64,000 bases of DNA, taken from positions 23,157 through 87,156 of IMG/VR virus record IMGVR_UViG_3300045988_128026; one strand, 5' to 3'. Both the position numbers and the translations under genes were made by a program. A model generated the notes under the pieces. The model ran no database searches and was not told the origin of the DNA. It worked only from the letters and a program-made list of their open reading frames with translations. The DNA is from a virus. Of the stretch, positions 9,415-55,042 are shown in pieces (position 1 is the first letter of the stretch; each line of letters opens with the position of its first letter).

Positions 9415-10443
9415 TTATTTAAGTGTATACAAATAGTTATTTAACAATAGTTCCCATTTTTTAGGATCATCAGTAGGTGATTCTTTTTCATCAAGGATTC
9501 CTTCTTTTGAATTATCCATAATATATGAAATCGGAACTCCATCAATAAAACGATCGCCAAGCTTTTGAATCTCTTCTAACTCAACATCTTTGTCAAAAAT
9601 AAATACTACTTCAACTCCGAGTCTTGTTAACATATCAATTTGCTGTCTTGAAACTTGCTTGCCGCCAGTTGCCACAACATTTTGATATCCATATGACCAT
9701 AGCTGCATGACAGCTTTTTCTGCTTCTGCAACATATACTCTTCCAACCCTTTCTATATAAGGTAGAGTTTTATTCAATCCGTATAAGATTCTTTGTCTAG
9801 CGCATGGTTCAATATATAAATATTTCAAATCATGTTTATCTAACTCTTTCTTGAACAATCGTCCTTTAACACCTACCAAATCGCCAATTTCAGAAAAAAT
9901 AGGTATTGTAATTCTGTTTGTATCTTCGTCATAGCCAATATTAAATTCTTTCTGTGTTAAATAAGTAATATGATCTTCATAAAACAGATCATTAACATAG
10001 TCCTTATAATAAGAAAGAATTCGTTTTGAAATTGGTTTGACTGGTTTATCTTCTTCGGTTTCTATATTTTCTTTCATATCATGAATCAATTGAGTGATCT
10101 GCAAACTTTCTGGCAGTTGCTCATTAAAATCATGATAATAATCTATGCCGATCAAATTGGCTAGATATTTTAAACCGTCTGGGAAAGACAGACTTTTTGT
10201 AAAGCATACCAAGTCAATTAAATCTGTCTGTCTTTCTTTTGCTGTCATTTTTCTTGTATAATTTGTGCAATTTAGGTTTTCGTTGTTATATGTAATAACT
10301 GCGGATTCATTATCCCCATCTTTATTTGCACAGCTCCAATATCCAGACGAATGATATTTAATATGATGACAGCCTATATCTTTCAGAATATTTTCTACAT
10401 AATTATTGTCGTATATATATTCTTTTAGCTGTGCTACATCCAT
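9415..10443 (-). CDS. DnaG-like DNA primase (zinc-binding + TOPRIM)
   Basis: N-terminal Cys/His cluster CHHIKYHSSGYWSCANKDGD..NCTNY; TOPRIM-like EAEKAVMQLWSYGYQNVVATGG...VVFIFDKD. Confidence 0.7.
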   Translation of the reverse strand: MDVAQLKEYIYDNNYVENILKDIGCHHIKYHSSGYWSCANKDGDNESAVITYNNENLNCTNYTRKMTAKERQTDLIDLVCFTKSLSFPDGLKYLANLIGIDYYHDFNEQLPESLQITQLIHDMKENIETEEDKPVKPISKRILSYYKDYVNDLFYEDHITYLTQKEFNIGYDEDTNRITIPIFSEIGDLVGVKGRLFKKELDKHDLKYLYIEPCARQRILYGLNKTLPYIERVGRVYVAEAEKAVMQLWSYGYQNVVATGGKQVSRQQIDMLTRLGVEVVFIFDKDVELEEIQKLGDRFIDGVPISYIMDNSKEGILDEKESPTDDPKKWELLLNNYLYTLK

Positions 10444-10446
10444 AAC

Positions 10447-12000
10447 CTACGCTCCGTTTTTCTCTCGTTTTATGACATATCCTATTTCGTCCCAAGTATT
10501 TAAATCCAAATTGATTTCAAAAATTGGAATAACATTTTTGTTACCGCCTCGGTTTTTATCAACCTTAATACAGAAATATGTCTTGTCCTTTTTTAGATCG
10601 TGCGCCTGTGGTTCTCCCCAATCACTAATTGATATATACTGATATTTGTAATATTCGTCAGGATGTAATCTTTTACCAAGCATTAAGATATCAGCAACGT
10701 GCTTAATCTGTTTTGCATTGGCAATATTATTACTACTTAGTTGGAATATATCTGTATACATTGTGTCATCTGTTAACTGGAATACAGAAAAACAAAACAT
10801 ATGGATCTCTTTCATAAGCTCTTTAATTTTTGTGGCTGTCTGTTTCACCGTTTGCCAATCATCAATACGATAACCTTTTAACGTGTCATAACCACAATAT
10901 TTCACATCATATAACATACGATGTTTTCTAAATTCAAACTCTAATGCCGAATCTGAGTAATCAGAGCCAACATCTTTGAAATATAATTTTCCTTGACGTT
11001 TCTGATCTACCCATTTTGCAACTTGCATAACTTTTTGAAACTCATCTGACGTCGTAGCTACTCTATGTCTGTACTCCTCTTCTGTTTCAATAAAGTCGCC
11101 ATTTTCATTTGTTTTTCTTTCAATCACATTGCCATTGTTGTCTCTGTAAATACCAAGAACTATTTCTTCTTCTGGCTTTTCAATATCAACCCCATGAAGC
11201 TCTTTAAAACATTTGTTGTTGATCACTGTAACGACTAAGCAATTTCGCAAATCGTCTTCATCCATTTCGTTACTGAGTAATAAAAATTTCTCATCCATTG
11301 CCAATACGATATATGCGATCAACAACATCATATTTCTTGATTTTCCTTCATTACTTAAGAATCCATTAAAAATTACCTTTCCAAGTCGACACCCTCTGAA
11401 CATCTTATTGAGAATCCCCCAAGGTAACGGAATCCCTAAATCTGGTTTTGATAAAAATGATTCAACCTGTGATTCAACACCACTATTCAATAAGACAGAA
11501 TCTTCGCCTGCGCTAATAACAGTATTAATTTTATCTGCCTGAGATCGAATCACTCTATAAATATCTTTTGCTTCCCATTTTTCAAATAATCTATGGTTTA
11601 AAATTCTTTGAACAGGATATCCATTTCTGTCATACTCTCTAACAAGAGAGTATTTCTTAACGAGATTATAATATTTTTTAAAATCATCACAATCTGCAAC
11701 CTGCATCCATGATGAAATTGTTTTCCACCCTTTGTATCTTTTATATGTCCTAAGTCTTTCATCTGATTGACTCATGAACATATTTACCTTATCTTCCTCA
11801 ATCGTCTGAGTAAATGTTTTGTACATAATCTCAAACATATCATAGAAGAATTTACATGCCTCATCACTGAAATCATACTGGCTTCTCATATATCCACCAT
11901 AAGAAACATATAAATCTGGTTGTTTATACAAAGCACCGATAAACATCATTTCACTCTGAATGTTAGTTACACTTTTACGTTCCACTGTTTCTTCTGTCAA
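10447..12000 (-). CDS. putative DnaB-like replicative helicase (RecA-fold C-terminal domain)
   Basis: P-loop-like NGFLSNEGKSRNMMLLIAY followed by acidic LLLSNEMDEDD; position between primase and recombinase; 517 aa. Weak motif match. Confidence 0.45.
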   Translation of the reverse strand: MTEETVERKSVTNIQSEMMFIGALYKQPDLYVSYGGYMRSQYDFSDEACKFFYDMFEIMYKTFTQTIEEDKVNMFMSQSDERLRTYKRYKGWKTISSWMQVADCDDFKKYYNLVKKYSLVREYDRNGYPVQRILNHRLFEKWEAKDIYRVIRSQADKINTVISAGEDSVLLNSGVESQVESFLSKPDLGIPLPWGILNKMFRGCRLGKVIFNGFLSNEGKSRNMMLLIAYIVLAMDEKFLLLSNEMDEDDLRNCLVVTVINNKCFKELHGVDIEKPEEEIVLGIYRDNNGNVIERKTNENGDFIETEEEYRHRVATTSDEFQKVMQVAKWVDQKRQGKLYFKDVGSDYSDSALEFEFRKHRMLYDVKYCGYDTLKGYRIDDWQTVKQTATKIKELMKEIHMFCFSVFQLTDDTMYTDIFQLSSNNIANAKQIKHVADILMLGKRLHPDEYYKYQYISISDWGEPQAHDLKKDKTYFCIKVDKNRGGNKNVIPIFEINLDLNTWDEIGYVIKREKNGA

Positions 12001-29930: not shown

Positions 29931-30000
29931 CATTTGTTGAATATAATATACCACTTCTTGAATATACTGTCAATACAAAATCTTCAACTTCTTGAACATT
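29931..30000. promoter_or_regulatory. three copies of (T/C)TTCTTGAA(T/C)AT-like repeat in the divergent intergenic region (candidate operators)
   Basis: tttgttgaatataat / cttcttgaatatact / cttcttgaacatttt read directly. Confidence 0.35.
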
Positions 30001-30004
30001 TTAT

Positions 30005-30033
30005 TTTACATCCTGTATGTAATATGCTACAAT
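30005..30033 (+). promoter_or_regulatory. sigma-A-type promoter TTTACA-N17-TACAAT
   Basis: Exact 17-nt spacer; RBS GGAGGT at 30043-30048 and ATG at 30055 follow. Confidence 0.5.
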
Positions 30034-30054
30034 ATAGATGTGGAGGTATATCAT

Positions 30055-30258
30055 ATGATAAGTTATAAACCGCTTTTCGTAACTTTAGCAAAAAAGGGTA
30101 TGACAAAATCTGATTTACGAACCGCTTTAAGTATGGGGTCTGGTACAATTGCCAAGATGGCAAAGAATCAGTATATCAGTCTCGAAAACATCGATAAAAT
30201 TTGCTTATATCTTGATTGCAAAGTTGAAGATGTTATTGAGGTCATACCAAACGATTAA
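30055..30258 (+). CDS. Cro/XRE-like small HTH transcriptional regulator
   Basis: MISYKPLFVTLAKKGMTKSDLRTALSMGSGTIAKMAKNQYISLENIDKICLYLDCKVEDVIEV is the typical ~65-aa Firmicutes phage HTH. Start set at the ATG with a good RBS; the track start at 29992 is upstream and hydrophobic. Confidence 0.65.
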   Translation: MISYKPLFVTLAKKGMTKSDLRTALSMGSGTIAKMAKNQYISLENIDKICLYLDCKVEDVIEVIPND

Positions 30259-30298: not shown

Positions 30299-30436
30299 TG
30301 GAAACAACAGGAATCGAACCTGTGTCGGCAATTTATATGTGATGAAAATTAAAATGTAAATAAATAAAATACTTATATGGAGGTAGAAAAATGAATGTTT
30401 ATGTATTGCCTGCTCTACCAACTGAGCTATGTTTCC
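30299..30436 (-). tRNA. tRNA-like gene (CAU-anticodon-type arms) with ~65-nt insertion in the anticodon loop; possible intron-containing or disrupted tRNA
   Basis: Minus strand: acceptor GGAAACA/TGTTTCC (7 bp), D-arm GCTC-AGTTGGTA-GAGC, anticodon stem GGCAA/TTGCC enclosing 72 nt beginning TACATAA, T-arm ACAGG-TTCGATT-CCTGT, discriminator A. No encoded CCA; variable loop only 3 nt. Confidence 0.45.
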
Positions 30437-30506
30437 ATGACTGGCATTGTATTTCAAATGCCAGTTTTATGTTTGTGAAATTAATTTTTGTAGATGAATT
30501 TATTCG

Positions 30507-31241
30507 TTATTTGCGAGCATTTTTCATCTGATCTAATATGGCTTTAGCTTCTTGCTGTCGCTCTTCTTGCTCCATATGATAATCCAATGTTTCTGCACTA
30601 GATTCATACGCAATAGCAACGCCTTTGGCTTGTTCGCTAAGTTTCTTTGCTCCTTCTCGAACCTCTTCCAAACCTTCCTGAGCAGCATTTGAACTATTGT
30701 ATTGATCTAAATTTTTCTGCAATTCTGCAATCTGCTGATCTGCCTCCATCTGAAGAACCACAGTATCTTTTTCGCTTTTTAGCTTAATGAGCTGATCATA
30801 CGCTTGGTTTTTAATTTCTTCTTGTTTATCTTTTGTGGATTGCAACTCTGGGATTTTCTTTTCGTACACTGATTTCTGTGCCTTTAGCGTGGCTAATTTT
30901 TGAGCATAATACATTGCTTTTTTATCATCATGATTATCAATGTACTGGTTGATCATTGCCTCGGTTTTAGAAATTTCTTCTTTTGTTTCTTTGAGATCAT
31001 CTTCCATTGTTGCCAATCTACCAGCTACCGTTGTGTATGTACCCATTGTTTTCTTATAAAAGTCCTGTTTCTCTTTAATTGCAGTATTATATCTGGCTCT
31101 TGCTCCCTCTGGAGTCATTGCATTTTCTTTGATCTTTTCTGTAACTGTTCCAGATGCCACATTTTTAATCTGCTTTCCGTTTTTAGTAAATTGTAAATAT
31201 GCGATAATTGCTACAATTACACAAATAATAATAATTGCCAT
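30507..31241 (-). CDS. membrane-anchored PspA/IM30-like coiled-coil protein
   Basis: N-terminal TM MAIIIICVIVAIIAYL followed by ~220 aa heptad-rich coiled coil. C-terminal NSSNAAQEGLEEVREGAKKLSEQAKGVAIAYESS resembles the PspA/LiaH C-terminal region. Assignment by pattern only. Confidence 0.4.
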   Translation of the reverse strand: MAIIIICVIVAIIAYLQFTKNGKQIKNVASGTVTEKIKENAMTPEGARARYNTAIKEKQDFYKKTMGTYTTVAGRLATMEDDLKETKEEISKTEAMINQYIDNHDDKKAMYYAQKLATLKAQKSVYEKKIPELQSTKDKQEEIKNQAYDQLIKLKSEKDTVVLQMEADQQIAELQKNLDQYNSSNAAQEGLEEVREGAKKLSEQAKGVAIAYESSAETLDYHMEQEERQQEAKAILDQMKNARK

Positions 31242-31255
31242 AATAATTTCTCCTA

Positions 31256-32716
31256 TTAGAACTCACGGTAATCTGCTGGCTCTGGTGTTCCAAGATTTTC
31301 ATTATCTGTAAACTCTACTTCTTTATCTTCAGAAACAAAATCTTTCAACATCTTTGCAAGATCAACACCTGTAGATCCTTTAACACCATCTGATACCTGA
31401 TTCACAACATTCATAATATCTTTTGTTAATTTTGTTGTATTGCCTTCTCCATACATAGTGATACTTCCTACGTTTCCTAATGGCGCAGCTGCATTTTTAA
31501 CTGCTTCTGGGAACATCTGGCACATCATTTCGACGATAGAAGCTTTACCCATCTGCTTCATAGCTTCGGCTTTCTTTTCGATCGCTTCTGCTTCAGCAAT
31601 ACCTTTTGCTTTAATCGCCTCAGCTTCTGCTACACCTTTCGCACGGATACCTTCAGCTTCCTGTTCCATAGCATATTTTGTAGATTCAGCTTCTTTTTCT
31701 TTAGCATATTTATTAGCTTCTGACTCTTTCTGTCTCTTATATAAATCTGCATCTGCTTTCTGCTGAGAGGCATATCTTTCAGCCTCTGCCTGTTTCTTGA
31801 TCTGTGCATCTAATGTCTGCTCTGTTACCTCAACGTCTTTACGTTTCAGTTCAATTTCTTTTTCCTGACGCATAATATTAGCATCCGCAGTTACAATTTC
31901 AATTTCTTTACGTGATTTTTCTTCCTGAATCTTGTATGCTGCATCTGCCTCAGCCTTCTTTGCTTTTGAAATCTTCTCAAGTTCAGATTTTTTAATTTCC
32001 AGATTGTTATTCTTTTCTGCGATCGCTGTTTCTGACTCAACCCTTGCATCATTCGCTTCTTTTTCAGCCATTGCTTTTGCTTTTTCAATATCTCTTTCGC
32101 TTTCAGCTCTGGAAATTGCAGCCTTCTTCTGAATTTTAACAACATTATCTACACCAAGATTTTCAATAACATCATTATCATCCATAAAATTCTGCACATT
32201 AAAACTGATGATATCTAATCCCATTGCAGCAAGGTCTGGCTTCGCATTTTCTGTAACAAGCTGTGCAAATTTCTGACGATCAGAAACCATTTCTTCGAGG
32301 CTCATCTTTCCAACGATCTCTCGCATATTACCTTCAAGGACTTCTCTTGCGACCTGTCCAATATCGCCTACTGGCTTATTTAAGAAGTTTTCTGCTGCAA
32401 GTTTTAATCTTTCTGGATTACTGCTAACCTTTACATTGACCGCTGCATCTACATTGATATTGATATAATCTGCTGTAGGCACAGAACTTGATGTCTTAAC
32501 ATCAATTGGAATTAACTCAAGATTAAGATGATCTGCTTTTTCAAAGAATGGGATTTTTAACCCTGCCTTACCAATTAATGTCTTAGGTGTCTTTCTAAGT
32601 CCAGAAATAATATAAGCTTTATCTGGACTTGCTTTGACATAACCGCTACCGATAATAGCTCCTACGCCACCTACCGCAATAACCACTGGTACCACTGTTC
32701 CAATTACTTCAATCAT
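31256..32716 (-). CDS. flotillin-like SPFH/band-7 protein (FloT/YqiK-like)
   Basis: N-terminal hydrophobic hairpin VVPVVIAVGGVGAIIGSGYV; SPFH core ...LIPIDVKTSSSVPTADYININVDAAVNVKV...RQKFAQLV...; long EA-rich repeat region (AEAEAIKAKGIAEAEAIEKKAEA); 486 aa. Confidence 0.75.
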   Translation of the reverse strand: MIEVIGTVVPVVIAVGGVGAIIGSGYVKASPDKAYIISGLRKTPKTLIGKAGLKIPFFEKADHLNLELIPIDVKTSSSVPTADYININVDAAVNVKVSSNPERLKLAAENFLNKPVGDIGQVAREVLEGNMREIVGKMSLEEMVSDRQKFAQLVTENAKPDLAAMGLDIISFNVQNFMDDNDVIENLGVDNVVKIQKKAAISRAESERDIEKAKAMAEKEANDARVESETAIAEKNNNLEIKKSELEKISKAKKAEADAAYKIQEEKSRKEIEIVTADANIMRQEKEIELKRKDVEVTEQTLDAQIKKQAEAERYASQQKADADLYKRQKESEANKYAKEKEAESTKYAMEQEAEGIRAKGVAEAEAIKAKGIAEAEAIEKKAEAMKQMGKASIVEMMCQMFPEAVKNAAAPLGNVGSITMYGEGNTTKLTKDIMNVVNQVSDGVKGSTGVDLAKMLKDFVSEDKEVEFTDNENLGTPEPADYREF

Positions 32717-32781
32717 AAATATCTCCTTTGTTATAAAATTTATTTATCACAACACCATATATAGATGTCATAATCTTGTTA

Positions 32782-33114
32782 CTAAATACATCCGCCACAA
32801 GAATTAGTGCGAAAATCCTCTTCATTGATTGCTTTGAAGATCTGGCGCTGAACATCAATATCTTTTGTAATTTTATCTAACCAATACTTATTAGCCTCAA
32901 TCCACTCATCTTGTTTCAGTCCGTCATAATATGATTCCCATTCTTCAACCCAGTCCTTAAAATACCATCGCTCATATCTTTTATATGTATTCATAGGTTC
33001 TGTGCGTAAGTCTTCTGGAATCTTATCGGTAACATCTTTGCCATCAACATCAAGCTTCCATTCTCCAATACAGAGTGCAAAACCACGACCTGTCCATTTT
33101 GCTTTAACTTCCAT
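32782..33114 (-). CDS. hypothetical protein
   Basis: ORF track; C-terminal CGGCI. Confidence 0.3.
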   Translation of the reverse strand: MEVKAKWTGRGFALCIGEWKLDVDGKDVTDKIPEDLRTEPMNTYKRYERWYFKDWVEEWESYYDGLKQDEWIEANKYWLDKITKDIDVQRQIFKAINEEDFRTNSCGGCI

Positions 33115-33116
33115 AT

Positions 33117-33887
33117 TTAATCATCCAACTCCATTCCTGCCTCGATCCACATGCCAGATATAAATTTAGGCATTGGAGCAAGTTTAAATACATTCTTCTC
33201 ATGCATCTCGTCAATGATCTGTCTCACTGCTTCATCTTTACATACTCCAGTTCTCAGATATTCGTCTAACATATCATATATAAATCCAAGATTATCTTCA
33301 TCTGTCTTACCGCATAATCCATCAGTAGGTGTTTTTTCGATTAACTCTGTTGGAAGTCCCAGAACTCTACCAATTGCTTTAACTTCTGTCACAGTCAGAT
33401 CACTTAATGGACTAAAATCTCCGGCTGAATCTCCATATCTTGTTGCATATCCGACCCAATCTTCAGATAAATTACATGTATTTGCTACTCTTCCATTCAT
33501 ACTCTGTGCAAAAGCATACAATGTAGCCATTCGGATACGAGCAGGTAAATTTGTGGCACTCTGTTTACTCCATTTACCGCCTAATTCATCTCTGATTTCA
33601 TGTTTAATATCTCTGCAAGCATTAAAAATATTAACTGTGTAATGTTCAATTCCTAGATGATCACATAGCATCTGAGAATACTCAATATCACTCTGCACAC
33701 CCTGTGGCATCATAATTCCAATAACTCGATCTTTACCTAGTGCTTCGACACATAAGGCAGCGACAACTGATGAATCTTTACCGCCTGAAATTCCTACAAC
33801 GGCATTACACCATCTTCCATTAACTTTAAACCAATCTCTAATCCACTGTACTAATCTGTCTTTGGTTTCTGCTGCATTAAAACTCAT
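33117..33887 (-). CDS. nadE: NH3-dependent NAD+ synthetase
   Basis: PP-loop GISGGKDSSVVAAL; size 256 aa; ATP-pyrophosphatase-fold conservation throughout. Confidence 0.85.
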   Translation of the reverse strand: MSFNAAETKDRLVQWIRDWFKVNGRWCNAVVGISGGKDSSVVAALCVEALGKDRVIGIMMPQGVQSDIEYSQMLCDHLGIEHYTVNIFNACRDIKHEIRDELGGKWSKQSATNLPARIRMATLYAFAQSMNGRVANTCNLSEDWVGYATRYGDSAGDFSPLSDLTVTEVKAIGRVLGLPTELIEKTPTDGLCGKTDEDNLGFIYDMLDEYLRTGVCKDEAVRQIIDEMHEKNVFKLAPMPKFISGMWIEAGMELDD

Positions 33888-34287
33888 GTTTTATATCTCC
33901 TCTCTTAATTCTTGAAATAAGTATTTTTAAGTGTTTATAGACTAAAGGCAAGCCACCTCTGTCATCAATATATACATTTGCATATGTCTTGCGACCGCCT
34001 ACGGGAACTGAACTGTCACAGTTGATACCTTTATATTTAATCTTATAATTCTGTAAATAATTTGCGATCATATCATATTTGTCTGATCCATTACCTGTCA
34101 GAATAATCACTTCAGAATAATCTTCCCATTCTCGAAGCAAATTCATCACGTCGTCATAAGTTCTACCAACTTTGTGAAAATCATATAATGTATCATCAAA
34201 ATCTACACAGAAAATTAATTTTCCATATTTTTTAAATTCATCTTCAAGTCGCTGATAGCAATGGTTTTCATCTAAGTAAAAATCCAT
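33877..34287 (-). CDS. small HAD-superfamily phosphatase
   Basis: Motif I VDFDDTL (DxDxT), motif II ILTGN, motif IV YIDDRGG; 136 aa. Confidence 0.5.
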   Translation of the reverse strand: MDFYLDENHCYQRLEDEFKKYGKLIFCVDFDDTLYDFHKVGRTYDDVMNLLREWEDYSEVIILTGNGSDKYDMIANYLQNYKIKYKGINCDSSVPVGGRKTYANVYIDDRGGLPLVYKHLKILISRIKRGDIKHEF

Positions 34288-35756
34288 TAAAATTCTCCTT
34301 CGTTTAAAACTCTTCTAATTTCCTGTAATGACTGTTCTTTTACCAATTTGCCATCTCTAAATACTGTCTCAAGCAGATTATTCATTGGAAGATTTTCTGA
34401 AGTATATCCATCTTTAAATGTCAATTTACCGTCTGATCCTGTATAAACATGACATAAACCTCTCTGAGATTTCTTAAATCCGCCATCTTTGGGATTCTTA
34501 AAAATTGGATATGGTCTGCCATTAATCTCACAATATGTTGCTTTGATGCAGCTACTAAATGTATCTCTTGTAAATGGTTTCAAAACTCCATCTTCTTCAA
34601 TGCACTGGAATGAGAATGATCCGACACCAAGTGCAACATTGCTTGCTGCGAATCCATTTTTCTCTAAGATGTCATAAATCTGCTCACATCTCTGCACTGT
34701 AATTGAATCTCCGTAAATTGCTTTTATATGAGGATCTAAAACTTTATATCCTTTACTGTTTGTCGTTCCCCCAAACTCTTCCCATAACTTGAATACCGTT
34801 CTGGTTACTACATCTACACAATCTCCTGAGTCTCCTCTGACAAGAAAACATCCATTGTGATTCATGATCTCATTCTTGAGTTTTGGGAGAATATTCTCTA
34901 CAACATTCCAATAATCATATGAATCTAACACTGCTGAGAAACTTGTGTTTGGATAAATCTCTGTCAGTAATCTCTTAATTAATGTTTCTTCATCTCCATC
35001 AATTGCATAATTACTACACATAACTGAATGTTCAGTCGATGGACTACCAAAAGCAACTGGCTCTTTCGTACAATCACAGTTATAATTTCTCTCTAAATAC
35101 GGAATTGTTGGAACTGTTGCTGTATTCAAGAATGATAAACACCATCCTGCCCCTGCTTTAACCGCAGACTGTAAACATTCTTCGCCACGAAAATCGAAAG
35201 CCCCTAATGCTTTAGATTTTGGAATATCGTCATCACAAGTCATTTCATAGAACTTGTTAACAATCTGTCTGTATGTATGTCCAACAGTTGCAGCGATCAT
35301 CGGATGCCACATTTCTGCGGAAATTAAGCTTTCTAATGCCTGTGGTAACCATGCAAAATCTTTATGTGTATTCTCAATACTAAACATCGGCACATGCATT
35401 GGTGCTAAAGTTCCTTCAGGAAGAGCCTTAATCTCAATTGGAAGATAGCCAAGATCATATAAATCTTCGATTTTCTGTAATCCATATGTACCTTCTCCAA
35501 GAGCTGCATCCATTACTGTCTTATAAGTACCAATTGCTTTGTTTCTATATTCAAAGAAAAAATACTCATTAAAATAATCGACCAAATACTCTTTAATGAA
35601 TCCTTGTAATCCAAACATGGCTACTTCATTCCATCGTTTTACTCTGCTCATACGTGGAGTAAAATAAGAAACAGATTTTGTAATACCTTTTGGTAACATT
35701 TCAGCATGAACTGCTTTGTAAAAATCAATTAATAACATTGGGTTTGTCTGTTTCAT
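34287..35756 (-). CDS. nicotinamide phosphoribosyltransferase family protein (NadV/Nampt-like; could equally be a Namat-type nicotinamide ADP-ribose transferase)
   Basis: LLIDFYKAVHAEMLP..SYFTPR parallels the Nampt ATDSYKVTHYKQYP..SYFECR; 489 aa; adjacent to a Prs-like gene. Confidence 0.75.
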   Translation of the reverse strand: MKQTNPMLLIDFYKAVHAEMLPKGITKSVSYFTPRMSRVKRWNEVAMFGLQGFIKEYLVDYFNEYFFFEYRNKAIGTYKTVMDAALGEGTYGLQKIEDLYDLGYLPIEIKALPEGTLAPMHVPMFSIENTHKDFAWLPQALESLISAEMWHPMIAATVGHTYRQIVNKFYEMTCDDDIPKSKALGAFDFRGEECLQSAVKAGAGWCLSFLNTATVPTIPYLERNYNCDCTKEPVAFGSPSTEHSVMCSNYAIDGDEETLIKRLLTEIYPNTSFSAVLDSYDYWNVVENILPKLKNEIMNHNGCFLVRGDSGDCVDVVTRTVFKLWEEFGGTTNSKGYKVLDPHIKAIYGDSITVQRCEQIYDILEKNGFAASNVALGVGSFSFQCIEEDGVLKPFTRDTFSSCIKATYCEINGRPYPIFKNPKDGGFKKSQRGLCHVYTGSDGKLTFKDGYTSENLPMNNLLETVFRDGKLVKEQSLQEIRRVLNEGEF

Positions 35757-36589
35757 AAATCTAACACCTCAACTTTCTCATGCTCTTTGGTAAAAATACT
35801 ACGTGTCGTATACACTTTTTTAAACAAACTATCTTCCTTTAATAATTCGCCATCAAGAATTGTATTTTCACAGTGACTAACATATAAATACATATCTTTA
35901 CAACCGTATTTGTTTAATTCTTTTGATCCATAATAGAATGTGCCACCCTTACTACAAATATCATCAATCATAAGGATTGCCGTATTTTCGTCTAATTTAT
36001 CTGTATCTCCATGAATCTCAATACCAAGAATTTCTCCTGTCTTCCAATCACGATTTTTAATTCCATAAACAATCGGATAATCATCTGATACAAATTCAGA
36101 ATATCTTTTTAGTGATCCGCTATCTGGAAAATAAATTACAAGATTTCTTGATGGTTCTGCTTTAAGGACTTTGCTACAAGTTTGTGTAATATATGATGCT
36201 CCACGGATTACTTCTACATGATCAATCAATGCAGTAGATACATCAGAATGTGGATCAGTTACAATAACTCTTACAAATCCAAGACTATTAATAATTTCTG
36301 CAAAATATTTTAATGTAAAGCATTCGCTTGGCTCTTTTACTCTGTCAAATCTTGCATTTGGTATATACGGCATCACTAATGCTTGTTGTAACCACGGAAA
36401 ATGTTCTTTAATATTTTTAGAAATACACAACAAGGAAAACAACTCTTTATCTGACTCATATAACCATGTGATATACGCTGTCTTGTTTTCTATGATTTCT
36501 TGAGATATCACGCCTAACGAAAAATCAATTTTTTGCGTTCCATCTGGAAAAGATTCTGGAACAACTGGGACTCCATTAATACTAATCAT
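35753..36589 (-). CDS. ribose-phosphate pyrophosphokinase-like protein (Prs; alternatively Adps-type ADP-ribose pyrophosphokinase)
   Basis: PRPP-binding loop AILMIDDICSKGGTF; 278 aa (shorter than canonical Prs); 4-nt overlap with the Nampt-like gene. Confidence 0.7.
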   Translation of the reverse strand: MISINGVPVVPESFPDGTQKIDFSLGVISQEIIENKTAYITWLYESDKELFSLLCISKNIKEHFPWLQQALVMPYIPNARFDRVKEPSECFTLKYFAEIINSLGFVRVIVTDPHSDVSTALIDHVEVIRGASYITQTCSKVLKAEPSRNLVIYFPDSGSLKRYSEFVSDDYPIVYGIKNRDWKTGEILGIEIHGDTDKLDENTAILMIDDICSKGGTFYYGSKELNKYGCKDMYLYVSHCENTILDGELLKEDSLFKKVYTTRSIFTKEHEKVEVLDL

Positions 36590-36603
36590 TCTTTATCACC
36601 CCT

Positions 36604-37194
36604 TTATTCATTAATTATTTCAATTTGACACATTTTCATTGCTTCAAGTGCATTCTTGTGACTCTCTGGTGTTACACCTGCGCAACACGATGCATCTACG
36701 ATAATCTTTGCTTTTGGAAGTGCCGCTTTTAATAACATTGCATTGGAGATTACACAAATATCTGTACATAAACCAATTAATGTAATTTCCACATTTTCTG
36801 GATGAAGTCGATTACCAATCCCAAATTCATCTTCACAGTCAAGTGCAAGGTCTAATGATCCAAATGTGCTTTTACGGTACATACCATCTGGTAATATAGA
36901 TTTGTCTTTGTTATCATCAATGGAAATATTGTTAGATAAAACATCTCCTACCTCTTGATTTAACCGCCATCCATCTTCTCCGCAGATGCAATGCTTTACT
37001 GGAAGATTCTTTCCTTCCTGTGTGGAAAGATAATCTTCCTCATGTGTGTCCATTGTTGCTACGATTATTCCATCAAAATTAATAATTTTCTCTACAACTT
37101 TTGGAACGATCTCCTGTGCTTCTTTAGTCCCAAGGCTTCCGTCGATGAAATCATTCTGCATATCGACGACAACCAATAACTTGTCAATATTCAT
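36604..37194 (-). CDS. pncA: nicotinamidase / isochorismatase-family hydrolase (PncA-like)
   Basis: LLVVVDMQNDFIDGSLG; Cys-containing GLCTDICVISNA catalytic segment; 196 aa. Confidence 0.75.
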   Translation of the reverse strand: MNIDKLLVVVDMQNDFIDGSLGTKEAQEIVPKVVEKIINFDGIIVATMDTHEEDYLSTQEGKNLPVKHCICGEDGWRLNQEVGDVLSNNISIDDNKDKSILPDGMYRKSTFGSLDLALDCEDEFGIGNRLHPENVEITLIGLCTDICVISNAMLLKAALPKAKIIVDASCCAGVTPESHKNALEAMKMCQIEIINE

Positions 37195-41603: not shown

Positions 41604-42434
41604 CTAAGCTGATGCACTCTGTGAGGCAAAGTATTGTGCTAATTTCTTTGCCAAGTATAATTGCCCTTTGCCAGTCACATATGTTTTGGTGATCAACTTG
41701 TTTCCATTCTTAGTTTCAACTTCACTTTCTGTTAATTTGAAAATGCCCTGCTTAACATATCTTTCATATGGGGTATTATCTGACATGAGATACCCTTCTT
41801 TTCTTAACCACGCAAATAATTTGTTTCTGCCCATATGAATATCTTGATTTTCTTTCTCAAGAAGCTTTGCCATTGTTTTCATATCAACCATTGTTGGTGT
41901 GGCACTGACCGTATTGGCAAAATCAACAAGTGGCTTCTGTTTACTGATAACTTCTTCTTTCTGGGCTAATAGTTCATCCTTTTGTTCCAAAGTGTTTTGC
42001 ATAATATTCAATGCTTTCGCCATGATAGTTAAATCATCATCGTCTTTTTCAATTGGAATATATCCGCCTGTCTTACGAATCTGCGGAAGAACTTCTGATG
42101 TTACCCAATGCTTGAATTCTTTTGCCTTATCAAGCTTACTTCCAAAGATTAATGCATAAAGTCCTGACTCATTAATAAACACTGGGTATTGAACTCTCCC
42201 TAATTTGTCTGTTATAGATGGGGTAACGTTTCGTTCCCCCATAATTTTATCTTCATCGTCAACATGATCTCGAATTGCTTTCTTCGAATTTGTATAACCA
42301 AGACACTCAGCTACATCTTTCCCTACGAACCACGGGTTATTATTTAAGATTACCGTTCTGATATTCCCAAATTCATCATTATTAAACACCAATGTGTTTA
42401 ATCCTTCATTTACCATATTCTTTTCTTCTGTCAT
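41604..42434 (-). CDS. BRO-N / KilA-C type phage anti-repressor-like protein
   Basis: BRO-N signature ..FGNIRTVILNNNPWFVGKDVAECLGY.NSKKA and SKLDKAKEFKHWVTSEVLPQIRKTGGY; good RBS AGGAGG. Confidence 0.65.
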   Translation of the reverse strand: MTEEKNMVNEGLNTLVFNNDEFGNIRTVILNNNPWFVGKDVAECLGYTNSKKAIRDHVDDEDKIMGERNVTPSITDKLGRVQYPVFINESGLYALIFGSKLDKAKEFKHWVTSEVLPQIRKTGGYIPIEKDDDDLTIMAKALNIMQNTLEQKDELLAQKEEVISKQKPLVDFANTVSATPTMVDMKTMAKLLEKENQDIHMGRNKLFAWLRKEGYLMSDNTPYERYVKQGIFKLTESEVETKNGNKLITKTYVTGKGQLYLAKKLAQYFASQSASA

Positions 42435-44772: not shown

Positions 44773-45222
44773 CTAGGATGCCATTGCATTCATGTACGAT
44801 AACATGCCGTTTTGTATTAAAATGCCATGTCCTATTTTTAACATTAAAGATAGATCAGATATTCTTCCCCAATATTCTAAAAGATTATTCTTTGGAATTG
44901 TTCTTCCTTGCTCTAAATACACCTGTGATACCATTTTTAATCCATTACTGGTATTTGGATAAATGGTTACATGTGTCGGTATCCAGTTCCTTAATTTTTT
45001 TGTAATTGGATACACGTTAATCTCTGTGCTCGTATTATTACAAATATTATTAGAATATACGATGACTGGTCTTTTCCCATGCAAGATATGACTACCTTCA
45101 ATTTTCGGCAAATCTGCAAAATATATTCCCCAAACTTGAGGATTTTGATATTTGCCATATACATATTCTTTTCTTTTTCTGTTATCGTTTCCTTTTCTTT
45201 CTTTGTTAGTATATCCGTTCAT
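44773..45222 (-). CDS. MazF/PemK-like endoribonuclease-fold protein with N-terminal extension
   Basis: GIYFADLPKIEGSHILHGKRPVIVYSNNICNNTSTEINVYPITKK matches the MazF/PemK core (G-x-[ILV]-x-x-[ILV]-D-[FL]-x...GKRP-x-[ILV]-V-[ILV]-S-N...V-x-P-[ILV]-T). Start set at M21 (RBS GAGGG, downstream of promoter copy 2). Confidence 0.5.
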   Translation of the reverse strand: MNGYTNKERKGNDNRKRKEYVYGKYQNPQVWGIYFADLPKIEGSHILHGKRPVIVYSNNICNNTSTEINVYPITKKLRNWIPTHVTIYPNTSNGLKMVSQVYLEQGRTIPKNNLLEYWGRISDLSLMLKIGHGILIQNGMLSYMNAMAS

Positions 45223-45279
45223 TTTTACGTCCCTCAACTTTCCCCAGTTGCATTTTTTGTTTTCATGAATTAAATATAC

Positions 45280-45328
45280 CATACTTTTTGCACCCTGTCA
45301 ATAGGTGCAAGAAAGAAAGTTAATTTTT
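45280..45328 (-). promoter_or_regulatory. 49-bp promoter element copy 2 (-35 TTGACA, 17-nt spacer, -10 TATATT on minus strand)
   Basis: Identical to 2051-2099; sits immediately upstream of the MazF-like gene. Confidence 0.5.
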
Positions 45329-45714: not shown

Positions 45715-46461
45715 CTATAAAATCCTAATAATTTGTTCGTAAATTGCAATCGCATTATCTTCTGGAAAGTTCTGGTTCACATGCATATGCCCAAAGAACC
45801 ATTTTTGATAAATCACTTTGTCTTTTATTTGCTGTAAATAATCCGTTAACTTGTCAGATTTGTACACTCCTGATCCTTGATCCATTTGTCTTAAAACAGA
45901 TGTGTATGGACTATGTGTAATAACGTAATCTACTTGGAAGTCATTTTTCTCTAAATTCATCACACCTTCTGCCATCTCTTTATCAGATGGCAATTCTTCT
46001 TTCCACCAGCTCACATGATTAATCCTAAACATTTTGTCATAATCTCTGTACCATTCATTAATTCTTGGATCGTCTGGCTCTAAAATTCCATCTTGCACAT
46101 CATGGGAACTGGCACCGCCAAATGTAAAGAATTTCTTTCCTTGAATTTCAAACACCTGTCCACGCATAAGATGAAATACAGAGTCTTTGATCTTGTGAAT
46201 CTTTCCGCCGCACCATTTCTCTACAGGATATTGATATAAGCGGTCGTAATTTTCATGATTCCCACATACAAACAATGTAGTAAATGGCTTGTTATCTAAC
46301 CATTCCAGATTATATCGTTCTTCTTTTGTGTCATGCCACAGTCCAAAATCTCCGCAGATAATCACATAATCATCTTTGGTTAACTCAACTCCCTCTGGGA
46401 AAGAACGACTGTTTAATCGAGTCATCCAATCCCCATGTGTATCTCCTGTTACAAATATCAT
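45715..46461 (-). CDS. calcineurin-like metallophosphoesterase
   Basis: MIFVTGDTHGDW, ICGDFGLW, VCGNHENY metallophosphatase motifs. Confidence 0.75.
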   Translation of the reverse strand: MIFVTGDTHGDWMTRLNSRSFPEGVELTKDDYVIICGDFGLWHDTKEERYNLEWLDNKPFTTLFVCGNHENYDRLYQYPVEKWCGGKIHKIKDSVFHLMRGQVFEIQGKKFFTFGGASSHDVQDGILEPDDPRINEWYRDYDKMFRINHVSWWKEELPSDKEMAEGVMNLEKNDFQVDYVITHSPYTSVLRQMDQGSGVYKSDKLTDYLQQIKDKVIYQKWFFGHMHVNQNFPEDNAIAIYEQIIRIL

Positions 46462-47408
46462 ACAATTACTCCTTCCAATAACTCTTCTAATGCCTGCATA
46501 TTATCTTCATGTACTCTATCATCTTGATCTGCATCATCTTTGCCAGTCTTATAAGCAAACTTGATAATCTCCATAACTCTATCATAACTCACATTAACAA
46601 CATTTTCCTTCAATCCGTTAAAAGCCCCACTGATAATTTCCTTGTATGTCTGCGCAATATCATCAAACAATACATGAGTTTCTTCCTCTGTGATTGTTGC
46701 ATACAGAAATGTCATTGCAGGGCTACTATGATTCAATAATCTCATAAGTGTATACAATACGTTCTGATCATCTTTATGATCGACAAGTGTCCAATACACA
46801 AAGTTCTTTCGTAATGTATGCGTACCAATATTGTCCTCAATTCCAACTGCTTTAGCACCTTTTTTAACAAAATCCAAAGCATTTGCTTCAGTCATGTGTC
46901 CTGATCCAGACTTACATGTTCCAAAAACATAATCATCCATTGGCACTTCGCCATCAATCTTGACATCATATTTAGTTCCTGCAACAGCTTCAAAGAAAAT
47001 ATCCACTGCTTCAGTTACCAAATCGTTAAAGTATACAGTTCTGAATTTCTTTGTTTTCTTTTCCTGCTTACGAGTCTTATCGTCTAATAAATCGCCCCAT
47101 TTGAGTCTGACGATATCAGAGATACGATATGCTGTATTGTTTCCAACTGCAACCAAAAGATTGTTTCTGGCAGCTACATATCGTTTGTACTCTGTGTACG
47201 ATTTATCAATCTGGTCTCTAAAATATGCATTAAAGGCTGCAAATTTTTCTTTGTTCTTAATTGGATACACTAAAGATGATACGCCTTTTTGTTTATTAGA
47301 TCGAGTCCATTTAGGATTTCCGTCCTTACGTCTTTTGATCTTTGCTTCAGGTTCTTCTGCGTTATTATTGTTTGCTGTTTTAATAACTTCAAACTGTGTT
47401 GCTGCCAT
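46458..47408 (-). CDS. tyrosine site-specific recombinase / integrase
   Basis: Box I YRISDIVRLKWGDLL, box II GTHTLRKNFVYWTL, LLNHSSPAMTFLYATI with the terminal catalytic Tyr. Confidence 0.7.
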   Translation of the reverse strand: MAATQFEVIKTANNNNAEEPEAKIKRRKDGNPKWTRSNKQKGVSSLVYPIKNKEKFAAFNAYFRDQIDKSYTEYKRYVAARNNLLVAVGNNTAYRISDIVRLKWGDLLDDKTRKQEKKTKKFRTVYFNDLVTEAVDIFFEAVAGTKYDVKIDGEVPMDDYVFGTCKSGSGHMTEANALDFVKKGAKAVGIEDNIGTHTLRKNFVYWTLVDHKDDQNVLYTLMRLLNHSSPAMTFLYATITEEETHVLFDDIAQTYKEIISGAFNGLKENVVNVSYDRVMEIIKFAYKTGKDDADQDDRVHEDNMQALEELLEGVIV

Positions 47409-51943: not shown

Positions 51944-53038
51944 CTATTCTTCTGAAATAATTTCCACCGCAGCTTCATAGAATCTATTATATAAAGTTGC
52001 ATTGGTTTTAATAAGCTGAGATTTAGACAGCCCATGAGCATATTCATCCCAGTTAACACCATTCTCTGTCATCTTGGTATAGATTTTCCGATAAACAGAC
52101 GTTCCACCTTTAGATTTATTTCCAATATGATTAGCATAATTGGTAATCTTAATCTTCATTTCATCCCAATCAGGCTGTGCGTTCTCTTTTCGGAACTGTC
52201 GCAGAAGTTTTTCCAATGAATTAACCAATAGGTCAGGATATTTGTCATAGCAAAGATCAATCGTTGGTACATTACCTCTTTCCCCGATATTATACTTCTC
52301 TTTGTATTCTTTCCGATCCTGTTCCCACACAATTCCATATGTGTTAGTAAGATACCTGTATGTTTCTTTAAGAATATCTCTTGTAGTAGTTCCTAGTTCG
52401 TCAGATTCTTTTAGAATATCATCAATGATAGAGTAGACATTAGATTTCCATTCATTGAGCTTGTATTCTGCGATAACACTTTCCGTATCCACTACTGGAA
52501 TATCTTTCGTAGGCTTGCCGATCTGCTTATATAATTCTTTCCGCTCCGCTTTCATTTCTTTAACAATGTCTGCCAGCTGATTAAATCCTTTAATAGTAAC
52601 CTTATACAGGCGTTCGTTGTTTCTTTCCATCTGTTTCATAAGTTCTGTCTGTTCTGTAAGAAACTGTTCTACTGTTGTTACTGGAGTTCCTATTCTTAAA
52701 TTTCCATGACGATAAGCTGCAATCACGTCCCATACCCAATCCATAAAAGCATTTGCCTTCGGTTGTCTGCTCCATCTGCAAATTTCCATCACACCACGTT
52801 CACTATAAAGTGTAGTATCATACTTCTTGTTATCAGTAGCCCCCAGTTTGAGGGTAACTGAATATTTATCCAGTCTACCTCTATACCTATTATGCAAATT
52901 ATCAATTGCTTTCTGTGGATCACTGTATTCCAGTGCCTCTCCGATCTGTTTTCTTGTCATCCAAATATCGTCCTCAGCACTATAAAAATCACACGTTATA
53001 TCGTTAAAATTTTCCGTTTTTACTAACTGTAGGTTCAT
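51944..53038 (-). CDS. BRO-N domain protein (anti-repressor-like)
   Basis: N-terminal ...CDFYSAEDDIWMTRKQIGEALEY and RWSRQPKANAFMDWVWDVIAAYRHG match the BRO-N pattern shared with 41604-42434. Confidence 0.55.
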   Translation of the reverse strand: MNLQLVKTENFNDITCDFYSAEDDIWMTRKQIGEALEYSDPQKAIDNLHNRYRGRLDKYSVTLKLGATDNKKYDTTLYSERGVMEICRWSRQPKANAFMDWVWDVIAAYRHGNLRIGTPVTTVEQFLTEQTELMKQMERNNERLYKVTIKGFNQLADIVKEMKAERKELYKQIGKPTKDIPVVDTESVIAEYKLNEWKSNVYSIIDDILKESDELGTTTRDILKETYRYLTNTYGIVWEQDRKEYKEKYNIGERGNVPTIDLCYDKYPDLLVNSLEKLLRQFRKENAQPDWDEMKIKITNYANHIGNKSKGGTSVYRKIYTKMTENGVNWDEYAHGLSKSQLIKTNATLYNRFYEAAVEIISEE

Positions 53039-53099
53039 TCTTTATCTTCCTTTCTAAACTGTCTTATTTTTCTCTATACTCATTATTTTTATATAGCTG

Positions 53100-53230
53100 T
53101 ATTCCGTAAACTAATAGAAATAAAATCAACATTTAATTCCAACTATTAGTGTGCCAATCCTAATAGAAACCTATTCTATTCCTATTAGTTCTCTATGTAA
53201 TTAACACCTTACCTATTAACAATTCTATGC
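53100..53230. promoter_or_regulatory. cluster of CTAATAG / CTATTAG motifs (at least 2 direct + 2 inverted) in a 320-nt noncoding region
   Basis: aaactaatagaaat, caactattagtgtg, cctaatagaaacc, cctattagttctc read directly. Confidence 0.35.
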
Positions 53231-53267
53231 TTAGTTAATCATTAATTTGTGTATAATAAATTTGACA

Positions 53268-53345
53268 AAGAACCGACCTGCCAAATCGGTTCCTGCCAAA
53301 TATTTCCGTAAAACAAAAAGAACCTTCCGTTCGGTTCTTTGCCAA
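53268..53345 (-). terminator. two tandem hairpins with GAACCG/CGGTTC stems; the second (AAAGAACC-loop-GGTTCTTT followed by TTGTTTTAC on minus strand) is an intrinsic-terminator candidate
   Basis: Read on minus strand immediately downstream of the 53361-53606 gene. Confidence 0.45.
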
Positions 53346-53360
53346 AATTATTATATGGAA

Positions 53361-53606
53361 TTAAATCAGCTGATAAATAAGCATTCCGAAAGCTACGATA
53401 ACCCATAATGTCGTAATTGCTTTCATAGGCTTCATAATAGCTTCTAATATTTCCTCTAATACGTCTATATATTTGCTTAAATATACCTTATTATGTTCAC
53501 GATCAATTTTTCTTAGCGATAACCAAGCTAGGAAAACAATCACATATAACACAAAAGATATTCCGCAGAACTGTTCAAAGAAATGAATAATCTGTTCTAA
53601 TTCCAT
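53361..53606 (-). CDS. small membrane protein
   Basis: Two hydrophobic helices (ISFVLYVIVFLAWLSL; TLWVIVAFGMLIYQLI). Confidence 0.35.
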   Translation of the reverse strand: MELEQIIHFFEQFCGISFVLYVIVFLAWLSLRKIDREHNKVYLSKYIDVLEEILEAIMKPMKAITTLWVIVAFGMLIYQLI

Positions 53607-54949
53607 ACTTCATCAGCCTCATCTTCATTATCATATAAATTTTCCACTGGTGCTGTCTGTTGGAACATATCTGTTGGAGATAGGTTTCTAGCTTCACACA
53701 TTGCACAAAAGACTTTCATTACCTTATCCCATTCATGTTCTTGAATCCACTGAAGAAATGGTTTCTTACCACGTTTCTTAACATCAATCTGATATTTGTA
53801 TTGCAAGTTCTTATAAAGCTCGTTCCACATAACAGAGAATTGTGTTCCTGTAACGGCAGCCAACTTCCTAATTCCAGCGTTCATCTTATTGCGATCATCC
53901 CACGTCAAAATTTCCGCTGCTAATAGCTTATTATCATTCTGTAACTTCTGATTCTCTTCTTTGAGTTCTTTGTTTTGTGTTCGCAGATCGGTTACCATAG
54001 CAAGCTTGACATCCTCAGAAAATGACGGGAAGTAGTGTTCAATGAACTGTGACTCTTTTCCAAAGTCAACCGCACCGCCTGTCTTACGAATGTTTCTAAG
54101 ATATTCTTTAATCTGTTTCTTCATCTGCTTTGCAATCGGTTTGCGTGACTGCATACATACTTCATAGAGTCCATCTTCTGTCAGAAACCAAAATGGATTA
54201 ATAGTCTTTCCCGTAGAATCAATCTGACCTAAATTTGACCCGCCAACATTATTGGCGGTTAAGATTTTGGTCTTATATTTTTCCTCTGAATCAATCGCCT
54301 GTAACATCATATCTGTTTTATAACTTCCATCAGGACGTTTACTATAATCAATCCATTCTGCAACATCTCTTGCCAAGAATAACGGATCTTCAATGCTTCT
54401 GTATAAGTCAATTCTTCTACCTAAAATTTCCGTTGTGTCTACAAGCTGCACACCTGCCTCTACCTGCTCTTGTTCTCTCTGCTCTTCCATCGTGATGTAC
54501 TCATTAATAAAAACATAATGTCTTACGTTCTCAGCAAGGCTTGAAGTTTCCATCAGTAAAGACAATCTGATCAAACATTTAAGAGTAAACACCTTAGCAC
54601 CCTTATAGCCGAATGAGATATTCAATCCGTTCGGATACGTTACAATGATTCTTCCCTTCTGTTTTTCCGTTGTTGCGTCCTGACCGTCAATGATTTCTTG
54701 TATTGTCTTAACTTCCATTCCATCGTCTAAAAACTCTTTGCGATACTTCGTACACAATCTCTTAACCTCGTCAACATCTCCATCAAAAAATCGTGCTACC
54801 TGTTCCGTAGTGATATAATCTCGTCCAGGGAGCCACGGAATCGGCTTGATCGTAACTTGTTTTAAAAGCTCCGTGTTCTGCACTAACTCATCCCTCTTTG
54901 CTTTATCCAAAATTGGATCGCAAGGGATTTCCATTTCGTTTAGATTCAT
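53597..54949 (-). CDS. BRO-N domain-containing protein (anti-repressor-like)
   Basis: Internal MQSRKPIAKQMKKQIKEYLRNIRKTGGAV matches the BRO-N family; start moved to the ATG preceded by AAGGTGG. Confidence 0.45.
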   Translation of the reverse strand: MNLNEMEIPCDPILDKAKRDELVQNTELLKQVTIKPIPWLPGRDYITTEQVARFFDGDVDEVKRLCTKYRKEFLDDGMEVKTIQEIIDGQDATTEKQKGRIIVTYPNGLNISFGYKGAKVFTLKCLIRLSLLMETSSLAENVRHYVFINEYITMEEQREQEQVEAGVQLVDTTEILGRRIDLYRSIEDPLFLARDVAEWIDYSKRPDGSYKTDMMLQAIDSEEKYKTKILTANNVGGSNLGQIDSTGKTINPFWFLTEDGLYEVCMQSRKPIAKQMKKQIKEYLRNIRKTGGAVDFGKESQFIEHYFPSFSEDVKLAMVTDLRTQNKELKEENQKLQNDNKLLAAEILTWDDRNKMNAGIRKLAAVTGTQFSVMWNELYKNLQYKYQIDVKKRGKKPFLQWIQEHEWDKVMKVFCAMCEARNLSPTDMFQQTAPVENLYDNEDEADEVWN

Positions 54950-55042
54950 AATTAATTCCACCTTTCTTATGTAAAAATTTGTATTAAAAAAGACACTCTG
55001 GAATTTTCCATAAGTGTCCTAGTTACCTATATTAATTTGTAT

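Follow-up and report, generated by a model that had tools for sequence, protein, structure and literature searches.

On the minus strand of IMG/VR virus record IMGVR_UViG_3300045988_128026, analysed here as a window of 64,000 nucleotides (nt; positions 23,157 to 87,156 of the record), a gene encoding a flotillin of 486 amino acids (aa; 31256-32716) is followed by a gene encoding a transmembrane (TM)-anchored protein of 244 aa related to PspA/IM30 (30507-31241). Our best explanation for this locus as a whole, to which we attribute a probability of about 0.45, is that the PspA-like gene is a resident of the phage backbone, that the flotillin was swapped in at the place of Ter genes and that the two products would contribute to the upkeep of the host membrane. 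The window is DNA of a large gut phage, encoding a DNA polymerase as well as RecJ-like, DnaB-like and exoV/helicase-like proteins, and IMG/VR contigs of about 160 kb are identical to it across this region.

The family to which the PspA-like gene belongs has a very regular genomic context. In all relatives at most 72% identical, over 60 phage loci in total, a cassette ends with the PspA-like gene and encodes, in this order, a Ca2+ P-type ATPase, sometimes a vWA-TerF protein, one to three TerD proteins and finally the PspA-like protein. The domain identities of these genes were confirmed, and for the ATPase the PMCA-type Ca2+ pump model gave the best match (1.5e-145). This context was found in 40 of 40 divergent loci and in 14 more, in all of the 7 usable loci from genomes or metagenome-assembled genomes (including a Ruminococcus isolate scaffold with phage-like neighbours) and in three Logan/ENA loci. 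Reciprocally, when TerD was used as query, a PspA-like gene was located directly downstream, within 1 kb, in 67 of the 79 viral loci, the remaining ones being truncated or found with inner TerD copies. No flotillin-type contig appeared among the matches of the TerD query, and no TerD, ATPase or vWA gene is present anywhere in the 64-kb window. As judged from these gene orders, the ATPase-TerD-PspA-like operon is the ancestral and almost universal context of the family, of which the window is a derived, Ter-less variant.

The passage from one arrangement to the other can be followed at the nucleotide level. Ter-type and flotillin-type phages of the genus share their flanking genes at 88-99% aa identity: NadE and a 110-aa gene (phrog_20678 / PM0253; 32782-33114, minus strand) form the conserved left flank of the swap site, and an interrupted tRNA-like element, a helix-turn-helix (HTH) gene and a 135-aa gene are shared on the other side. 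Nucleotide homology to two of these relatives (L034 and L161) extends through the intergenic region, the ribosome binding site (RBS) and the start codon up to position 32711, and restarts at position 31251, just before the RBS of the PspA-like gene. The intergenic region itself (32717-32781, minus strand), which contains the flotillin RBS (AAAGGAGAT), is common to the Ter-type relatives, where it precedes the Ca-ATPase gene. The two junctions indicate that the flotillin open reading frame (ORF) stands exactly in the place of ATPase-vWA-TerD, downstream of the same signals, and hence that the flotillin inherited these signals and came to lie 14 nt before the PspA-like gene. Within the genus, the PspA-like allele of the window nests among Ter-linked alleles, with which it shares 72, 61 and 49% identity, and one flotillin-linked allele (P0003, locus L119) is a recombinant whose nt 1-315 are of the window type and whose nt 316-735 are 98-100% identical to a Ter-type allele. 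All this evidence designates the PspA-like gene as the resident and the flotillin as the newcomer, a history that the sequence comparisons make very probable. A preliminary description of this DNA, made from its letters alone, had seen in the locus an acquired cassette bracketed by the HTH gene and the tRNA-like element. The HTH gene is 90-100% conserved in all relatives of the genus, whatever the cassette type, and the tRNA-like element is 97% conserved in flotillin-type and Ter-type relatives, with indels confined to its insert. Since both are conserved in all relatives, they belong, like the PspA-like gene, to the backbone and are not scars of a cassette acquisition; only the flotillin is new.

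The 486-aa protein is matched by Band_7 (PF01145) over residues 50-207 (7.8e-24, 85.1 bits for a gathering threshold, GA, of 23.6) and, marginally, by the Flot domain PF15975 (3.2e-6, 27.7 bits for a GA of 27). A hydrophobic anchor at the N-terminus (residues 5-23, Kyte-Doolittle index 2.26) precedes the SPFH domain, and the tail is rich in glutamate (E) and alanine (A), with AEAEAI repeats; together with lysine (K), these residues make up 54% of positions 200-400. The NCBIfam model FloT (NF058507) is matched at 1e-88 and 298.5 bits and its equivalog cut-off of 700 is not reached. On these profile matches, the protein is a member of the flotillin family and not a FloT equivalog. The closest named homologues beyond the phage clade are the chromosomal flotillins of Longibaculum muris and Coprobacillus cateniformis, which have the same domains and are 70-72% identical over 90% of the length. 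Both genera belong to the Coprobacillaceae (order Erysipelotrichales), which suggests the source of the gene as well as the likely host range of the phage. In Longibaculum, the flotillin gene sits in a PadR-HAAS-80aa-flotillin operon, and the HAAS-PadR-like regulator pair is listed among the novel partners of the envelope-stress system called PSP (phage shock protein) (Ravi et al. 2024, PMC11237479). The phage gene, in contrast, is accompanied by no PadR, HAAS or 80-aa gene and follows a phage promoter/RBS region. No partner of the NfeD/YuaF/YqiJ type, which is frequent without being defining, was found beside the phage flotillin, whose neighbours are the PM0253-like 110-aa gene and the PspA-like gene, and the Longibaculum operon likewise has none. 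The GC content of the flotillin and PspA-like genes, overall and at third codon positions (GC3), gives no signal of foreign origin, the flotillin being already phage-like.

The 244-aa protein is matched over its full length by PHROG 33389 (unknown function; 9e-22). With PspA_IM30 (PF04012) the single sequence gives an E-value of 0.015 and 15.4 bits, below the GA of 33.9, in a colinear match that covers nearly the whole soluble part (residues 52-242 for profile positions 29-217 of 220). An exhaustive profile search collected a family of 319 clusters at E<=1e-3, mostly of 240-260 aa and matching over the full length. PF04012 was found in 13 of 15 close relatives at E<=0.01 and in 37 of 71 diverse relatives at E<=0.001 (best value 6.6e-13). 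Compared with the PDB, the profile of the 71 members matched Vipp1/PspA chains at 2.9e-7 to 1e-6, again colinearly (query 51-207 for chain 29-186), and the best generic coiled coil, tropomyosin, was about 1000-fold worse. The AlphaFold2 model (mean pLDDT 76, above 90 at residues 50-160) consists of a TM helix at 2-18 and of helices at 44-102, 106-181 and 186-243, which may form a helical hairpin of the ESCRT-III type (alpha1 - alpha2/3) with further helices after it. In Foldseek, Vipp1/PspA obtained the best TM-scores (0.5-0.65, probability 1.0) with E-values of 0.02-0.2, and SMC coiled coils scored similarly; such weak E-values are expected for long helices. The amphipathic N-terminal helix alpha0, by which peripheral membrane binding occurs, is absent from the 244-aa protein, where a hydrophobic TM helix (residues 2-18, Kyte-Doolittle index 2.9) kept across the family is found instead. 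The net charge of +3 over the following residues 19-40 suggests that the helical body faces the cytoplasm. From the profiles and the predicted fold we conclude that this is a divergent PspA/IM30 protein (ESCRT-III superfamily) in which a TM helix replaces alpha0, and we regard the identities proposed for the two proteins as highly probable. Both had been recognised in the preliminary description, including the EA-repeat tail of the flotillin and the single TM helix and the long coiled coil of its neighbour. The PspA resemblance is confirmed by the family profile and is not confined to the C-terminal region where it had first been placed.

Other identities considered for the 244-aa protein (tape-measure, chaperone or SMC-like) gave only generic coiled-coil noise, below the PspA/Vipp1 signal, and no different coiled-coil family did better. 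Three apparent fusions (P0023, which joins TerD and PspA-like parts, P0208 and P0217) look like deletion or chimeric singletons devoid of the TM and N-terminal part and were not used as Rosetta-stone evidence. The PspA-like gene is the most divergent of its locus, with 44-72% identity for 82-99% in its neighbours. Between L034 and L161, for example, vWA is 99%, TerD 77% and PspA-like 50% identical, and between L190 and L204 the values are 82-92% for TerD and 44% for PspA-like; at the nucleotide level, the gene forms an island of 64-78% identity within a backbone at 94-98%. This divergence could reflect an arms race or a lax constraint on the coiled coil. Distant members of the family, at about 25% identity, occur in Bacillus phage G (L001, gp243-gp250, the member being gp247) and in L003 (MT835556), where they lie between ABC permease/ATPase genes and genes with an OmpA/MotB domain (solute-binding + OmpA). 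This arrangement matches the TM-PspA/Snf7 + ABC + PBPB-OmpA context known from bacteria (Ravi et al. 2024, PMC11237479).

The flotillin and PspA-like genes are co-oriented and separated by 14 nt (31242-31255, minus strand; 15 nt had been given initially), a spacer that includes the RBS of the PspA-like gene (TAGGAGAAATTATT-ATG). Each gene is preceded by a strong Shine-Dalgarno sequence and no terminator-like site was found between them on the minus strand; from this arrangement, their co-transcription is probable. Within a set of about 35 near-identical contigs, the median pairwise ratio of nonsynonymous to synonymous substitution rates (dN/dS) is 0.068 across the PspA-like gene (22 alleles) and 0.061 across the flotillin gene (19 alleles). 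Both genes are therefore under strong purifying selection and correspond to real functional genes, not to chance ORFs. In a few contigs, a copy of the PspA-like gene (L042, 6001-6694) or of the flotillin gene (L006 and L022) is split by a frameshift, owing either to assembly errors or to occasional pseudogenisation. A megablast of the region against GenBank phages gave no match.

As to function, we propose that both proteins would sit at the host membrane, on its cytoplasmic side, and would help to keep it sealed and energised through the long infection cycle of a phage of about 160 kb. The flotillin would assemble into SPFH microdomains or cages, stressed or damaged parts of the bilayer would be covered by membrane-bound polymers of the PspA-like protein, and these phage-supplied effectors would compensate for envelope-stress responses that a shut-off host cannot induce. 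The link of the Longibaculum flotillin to a PadR-HAAS stress regulator can be cited for such a stress-response view. On the sequence evidence, we consider this role in membrane maintenance an even bet. With less certainty, the task of recruitment or scaffolding served by the lost Ter/Ca2+ part may have passed to the flotillin. The precedent is the pspA-ydjGHI (samGHI) operon of Bacillus subtilis, in which PspA is brought to the membrane by YdjI, an SPFH protein (PMC8581546). As at the phage locus, PspA-family and SPFH-family genes, both encoding membrane stress effectors, are united there in one co-oriented unit. However, YdjI is cytosolic and depends for its recruitment on YdjG/H, of which the phage locus has no homologues. 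The SPFH member at the phage locus is a full flotillin, its PspA-like neighbour is anchored by a TM helix of its own and the pair lacks evolutionary conservation. In bacteria, operons that combine PspA with band-7/flotillin proteins are common (Ravi et al. 2024, PMC11237479) and display the same flotillin architecture, but their CesT/Tir, AAA+ ATPase and YqiJ/YuaF partners are absent at the phage locus, and the conservation of PspA-SPFH adjacency across divergent lineages seen in bacteria was not observed for the phage pair. By analogy with these bacterial precedents, a direct cooperation between the flotillin and the PspA-like protein is plausible; it finds no support in co-conservation and we regard it as rather doubtful.

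Several observations weigh against the explanation proposed here. The adjacency of the two genes is restricted to alleles at least 86% identical to those of the window. In a close relative (L016/L132), a clean indel of 1526 bp removes the flotillin and leaves the PspA-like gene intact, without any Ter gene. Flotillin and PspA-like alleles reassort freely within the clade, so that there is no sign of co-adaptation. The PspA assignment is a similarity at the level of profile and fold in a coiled-coil-rich protein, with the Foldseek E-values given above. The region is also a general accessory hotspot, with NAD-salvage genes here and tRNA-repair genes in relatives, so that adjacency alone is weak evidence. 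Finally, the flanks of other viral flotillin loci were covered to 10 kb, and within this distance PspA-like, TerD, ATPase and vWA genes are absent from all of them (0 of about 45).

These same observations suggest an alternative, namely that the two genes are coincidental neighbours, the flotillin being a stand-alone host-derived moron in a recombination hotspot and the PspA-like gene a leftover of a dismantled Ter cassette, with proteins that act independently. The limitation of the pair to one shallow clade, the 45 phage flotillins that stand alone, the variable position of the flotillin among related phages, its absence from L016 and the reassortment of the alleles all agree with it. Nevertheless, the PspA-like gene has remained under strong purifying selection after the loss of TerD, the replacement is ORF-precise and leaves the upstream signals as they were, one slot is used by both flotillin and Ter/ATPase genes in at least three lineages and the coupling of PspA with SPFH proteins is well documented in bacteria. 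We therefore hold mere coincidence to be possible but unlikely.

The distribution of flotillins in other phages documents this shared slot. At least 45 other viral contigs carry flotillins (40-66% identity), and the gene occupies several different positions among related phages. In L104, L114 and L115, compared with L190, the flotillin and the Ter-PspA cassette alternate in the same slot with both flanks shared, and they are again alternate occupants in L105 and L107 compared with L204, downstream of a common gene pair (685-698 aa and 126-129 aa). In L208 (2043-6962) and L209 (2020-6941), a flotillin 81-82% identical to that of the window is followed by an RNase H-like gene and then by a Ca2+ P-type ATPase; TerD and PspA-like genes are absent. 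These arrangements correspond either to a plain accessory hotspot or to a shared functional theme, the homeostasis of membrane and Ca2+. The initial impression that these are not standard phage genes was thus half right, the PspA-like family being widespread in large gut phages (319 clusters) and flotillins recurring on the contigs mentioned above. As for the idea of a two-gene membrane module, the identities of both members stood and the pair proved not to be co-conserved. Two GenBank entries labelled 'Bacteriophage sp.' (L004, MT836322.1, and MT839823.1) also contain flotillins 51-53% identical, and L004 resembles a bacterial chromosome, lgt, ybaK, greA and beta-glucosidase genes adjoining its flotillin.

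The Ter context of the family calls for comparison with known phage systems. Ter genes in jumbo phages have already been described (Iyer et al. 2021, PMC7824862), and terD beside a pspA-like gene, together with Ca2+ P-type ATPases, has been reported in gut Jug phages (PMC12880540). The relatives of the window resemble such systems in their TerD, vWA-TerF, Ca-ATPase and PspA-like genes; the window itself departs from them, having lost TerD, vWA and ATPase and gained a flotillin. In the former paper, superinfection exclusion is proposed for phage-borne Ter operons with TerD, TerF-vWA and TelA. Transposed to our locus, a sub-membrane layer of PspA-like protein, assisted by TerD/vWA or, here, by the flotillin, would bar rival phages or colicin-like agents from the infected or lysogenised cell. 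The PspA-like gene has the terminal position of TelA, and its place as the most divergent gene of the locus would fit an arms race. However, the fast evolution of coiled coils needs no arms race, dN/dS shows no sign of positive selection, flotillins are not known to be linked to entry exclusion and PADLOC gave no match for the flotillin, PspA-like, TerD, vWA or ATPase components. We consider this function improbable.

The genes directly upstream (33117-37194, minus strand) raise another possibility. They encode a nicotinamidase-like protein (196 aa), a PRPS-like protein (278 aa), an NAMPT-like protein (489 aa), a phrog_1238 protein (136 aa) and NadE, and the PRPS-like gene overlaps the NAMPT-like gene by 4 nt. 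Together, these two overlapping genes resemble the anti-defence pathway NARP1 (Adps + Namat). In relatives (L210/L211, L105 and L044), RlaP, a CCA-adding enzyme/PolyA_pol and RtcB are encoded next to the flotillin or the Ter-PspA cassette. A dedicated counter-defence could thus be imagined, in which the locus would repair or pre-empt the membrane damage caused by effectors of abortive infection (pore formers, or the TM effectors of CBASS or retrons), in parallel with neighbouring blocks that would undo the depletion of NAD+ and, in relatives, the cleavage of tRNA. The argument is drawn purely from context, however, no match to a known anti-defence protein family was obtained and general membrane upkeep accounts for the same data, so that we give this more specific role only a small chance. 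A function in lysis timing, with the TM coiled-coil protein acting like a holin/antiholin or a spanin, is far less probable still. The single TM helix and the coiled coil would be compatible with it, but the locus lies among replication and auxiliary genes and not in a lysis cassette, the family is invariably coupled to TerD/Ca-ATPase and its best similarity is to PspA/Vipp1. The context therefore favours membrane integrity and disfavours lysis timing.

Membrane upkeep might also be part of a broader scheme, in which large gut phages would encode a self-contained, Ca2+-gated membrane-repair system, flotillin-based in the lineage of the window. A lesion would admit Ca2+, TerD and the copine-like vWA protein would sense it and recruit the TM-anchored, ESCRT-III-type polymer of the PspA-like protein, which would seal the bilayer, and the phage Ca2+-ATPase would then reset the signal. 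In the window's lineage, the captured host flotillin would replace the Ca2+ sensor-pump part as a platform positioning the polymer, and the purpose would be to survive pore-forming abortive-infection effectors or superinfection. In eukaryotes, Ca2+-triggered repair of the plasma membrane by ESCRT-III uses ALG-2/ALIX. The ancestral phage cassette similarly joins Ca2+ handling (pump, Ca-binding TerD and copine-like vWA) to an ESCRT-III-type polymer; this is an analogy only, since the sensors are not homologous and the window is without the Ca2+ part. We regard this joint scheme as speculative and quite unlikely, and the locus would be highly interesting only if it were true.

The coupling of PspA with SPFH proteins in bacteria, the Ter genes of jumbo phages and the position of terD beside a pspA-like gene in Jug phages are already known. 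TerD is not mentioned in the PSP survey of Ravi et al. 2024 (0 occurrences; PMC11237479). The consulted portions of the literature contained no description of a TM-anchored PspA-like family of about 320 clusters, of a near-obligate ATPase-TerD-PspA-like operon or of a host-derived flotillin taking the place of the Ter part with ORF precision. Our results define a phage family of considerable size, made up of PspA/ESCRT-III-like proteins that are anchored in the membrane and whose genes are strictly coupled to those of TerD and a Ca2+ pump, and bear on the poorly understood question of how phages keep the host membrane intact and energised after host shut-off. They also reveal a natural experiment among close phages, which have a Ter cassette, a flotillin or nothing upstream of the same PspA-like gene. 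This may offer handles on the function of TerD, a question of several decades' standing, on the cooperation of PspA with SPFH proteins and on the ways in which phages might counter immunity that targets membranes.

Regarding the flanks, the Cro-like gene noted on the plus strand was confirmed as a Cro/C1-type HTH_26 gene (29992-30258; Pfam 1.5e-13), convergent to the flotillin and PspA-like genes, and the disrupted tRNA-like element as an interrupted tRNA-like gene at 30299-30436 (minus strand), which matches the full Rfam model RF00005 (positions 1-71) at 46.4 bits. This element is 138 nt long owing to about 64-66 extra nt in the anticodon arm, an AT-rich insert placed in the anticodon loop between the stem halves GGCAA and UUGCC. 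What is left of the loop is UACAUAA (CAU-type), and ACAUA(U)AAA-like repeats flank the insert, in which, on the plus strand, a GGAGG-N7-ATG start of a 46-aa ORF (30391-30531) was found. The element is present also in L005, L007, L016, L034, L036, L119, L161 and L162. ARAGORN called no tRNA at 30299-30436, which is a limit of the tool because Rfam detected the element. A group I intron was rejected, the insert being too short, and no RtcB or CCA-adding gene that might take part in tRNA processing was found among the window ORFs scanned. A spliced element, a functional one and a fixed pseudogene are all candidates.

Elsewhere in the window, all on the minus strand, we observed genes for a protein with a PemK/MazF-like toxin domain, a recombinase of the phage-integrase family and several anti-repressors of the Bro-N/KilAC or Ant type (44773-45282, 46458-47408, 41604-42434 and 51944-54961 for these toxin, recombinase and anti-repressor genes); a temperate phage, or one with addiction-type genes, is possible. 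Finally, the Ter-type phage L190 possesses a tRNA cluster (10293-11430) with a tRNA-Met and a tRNA of anticodon TTA (ochre-suppressor-like), which may hint at stop-codon reassignment or suppression.

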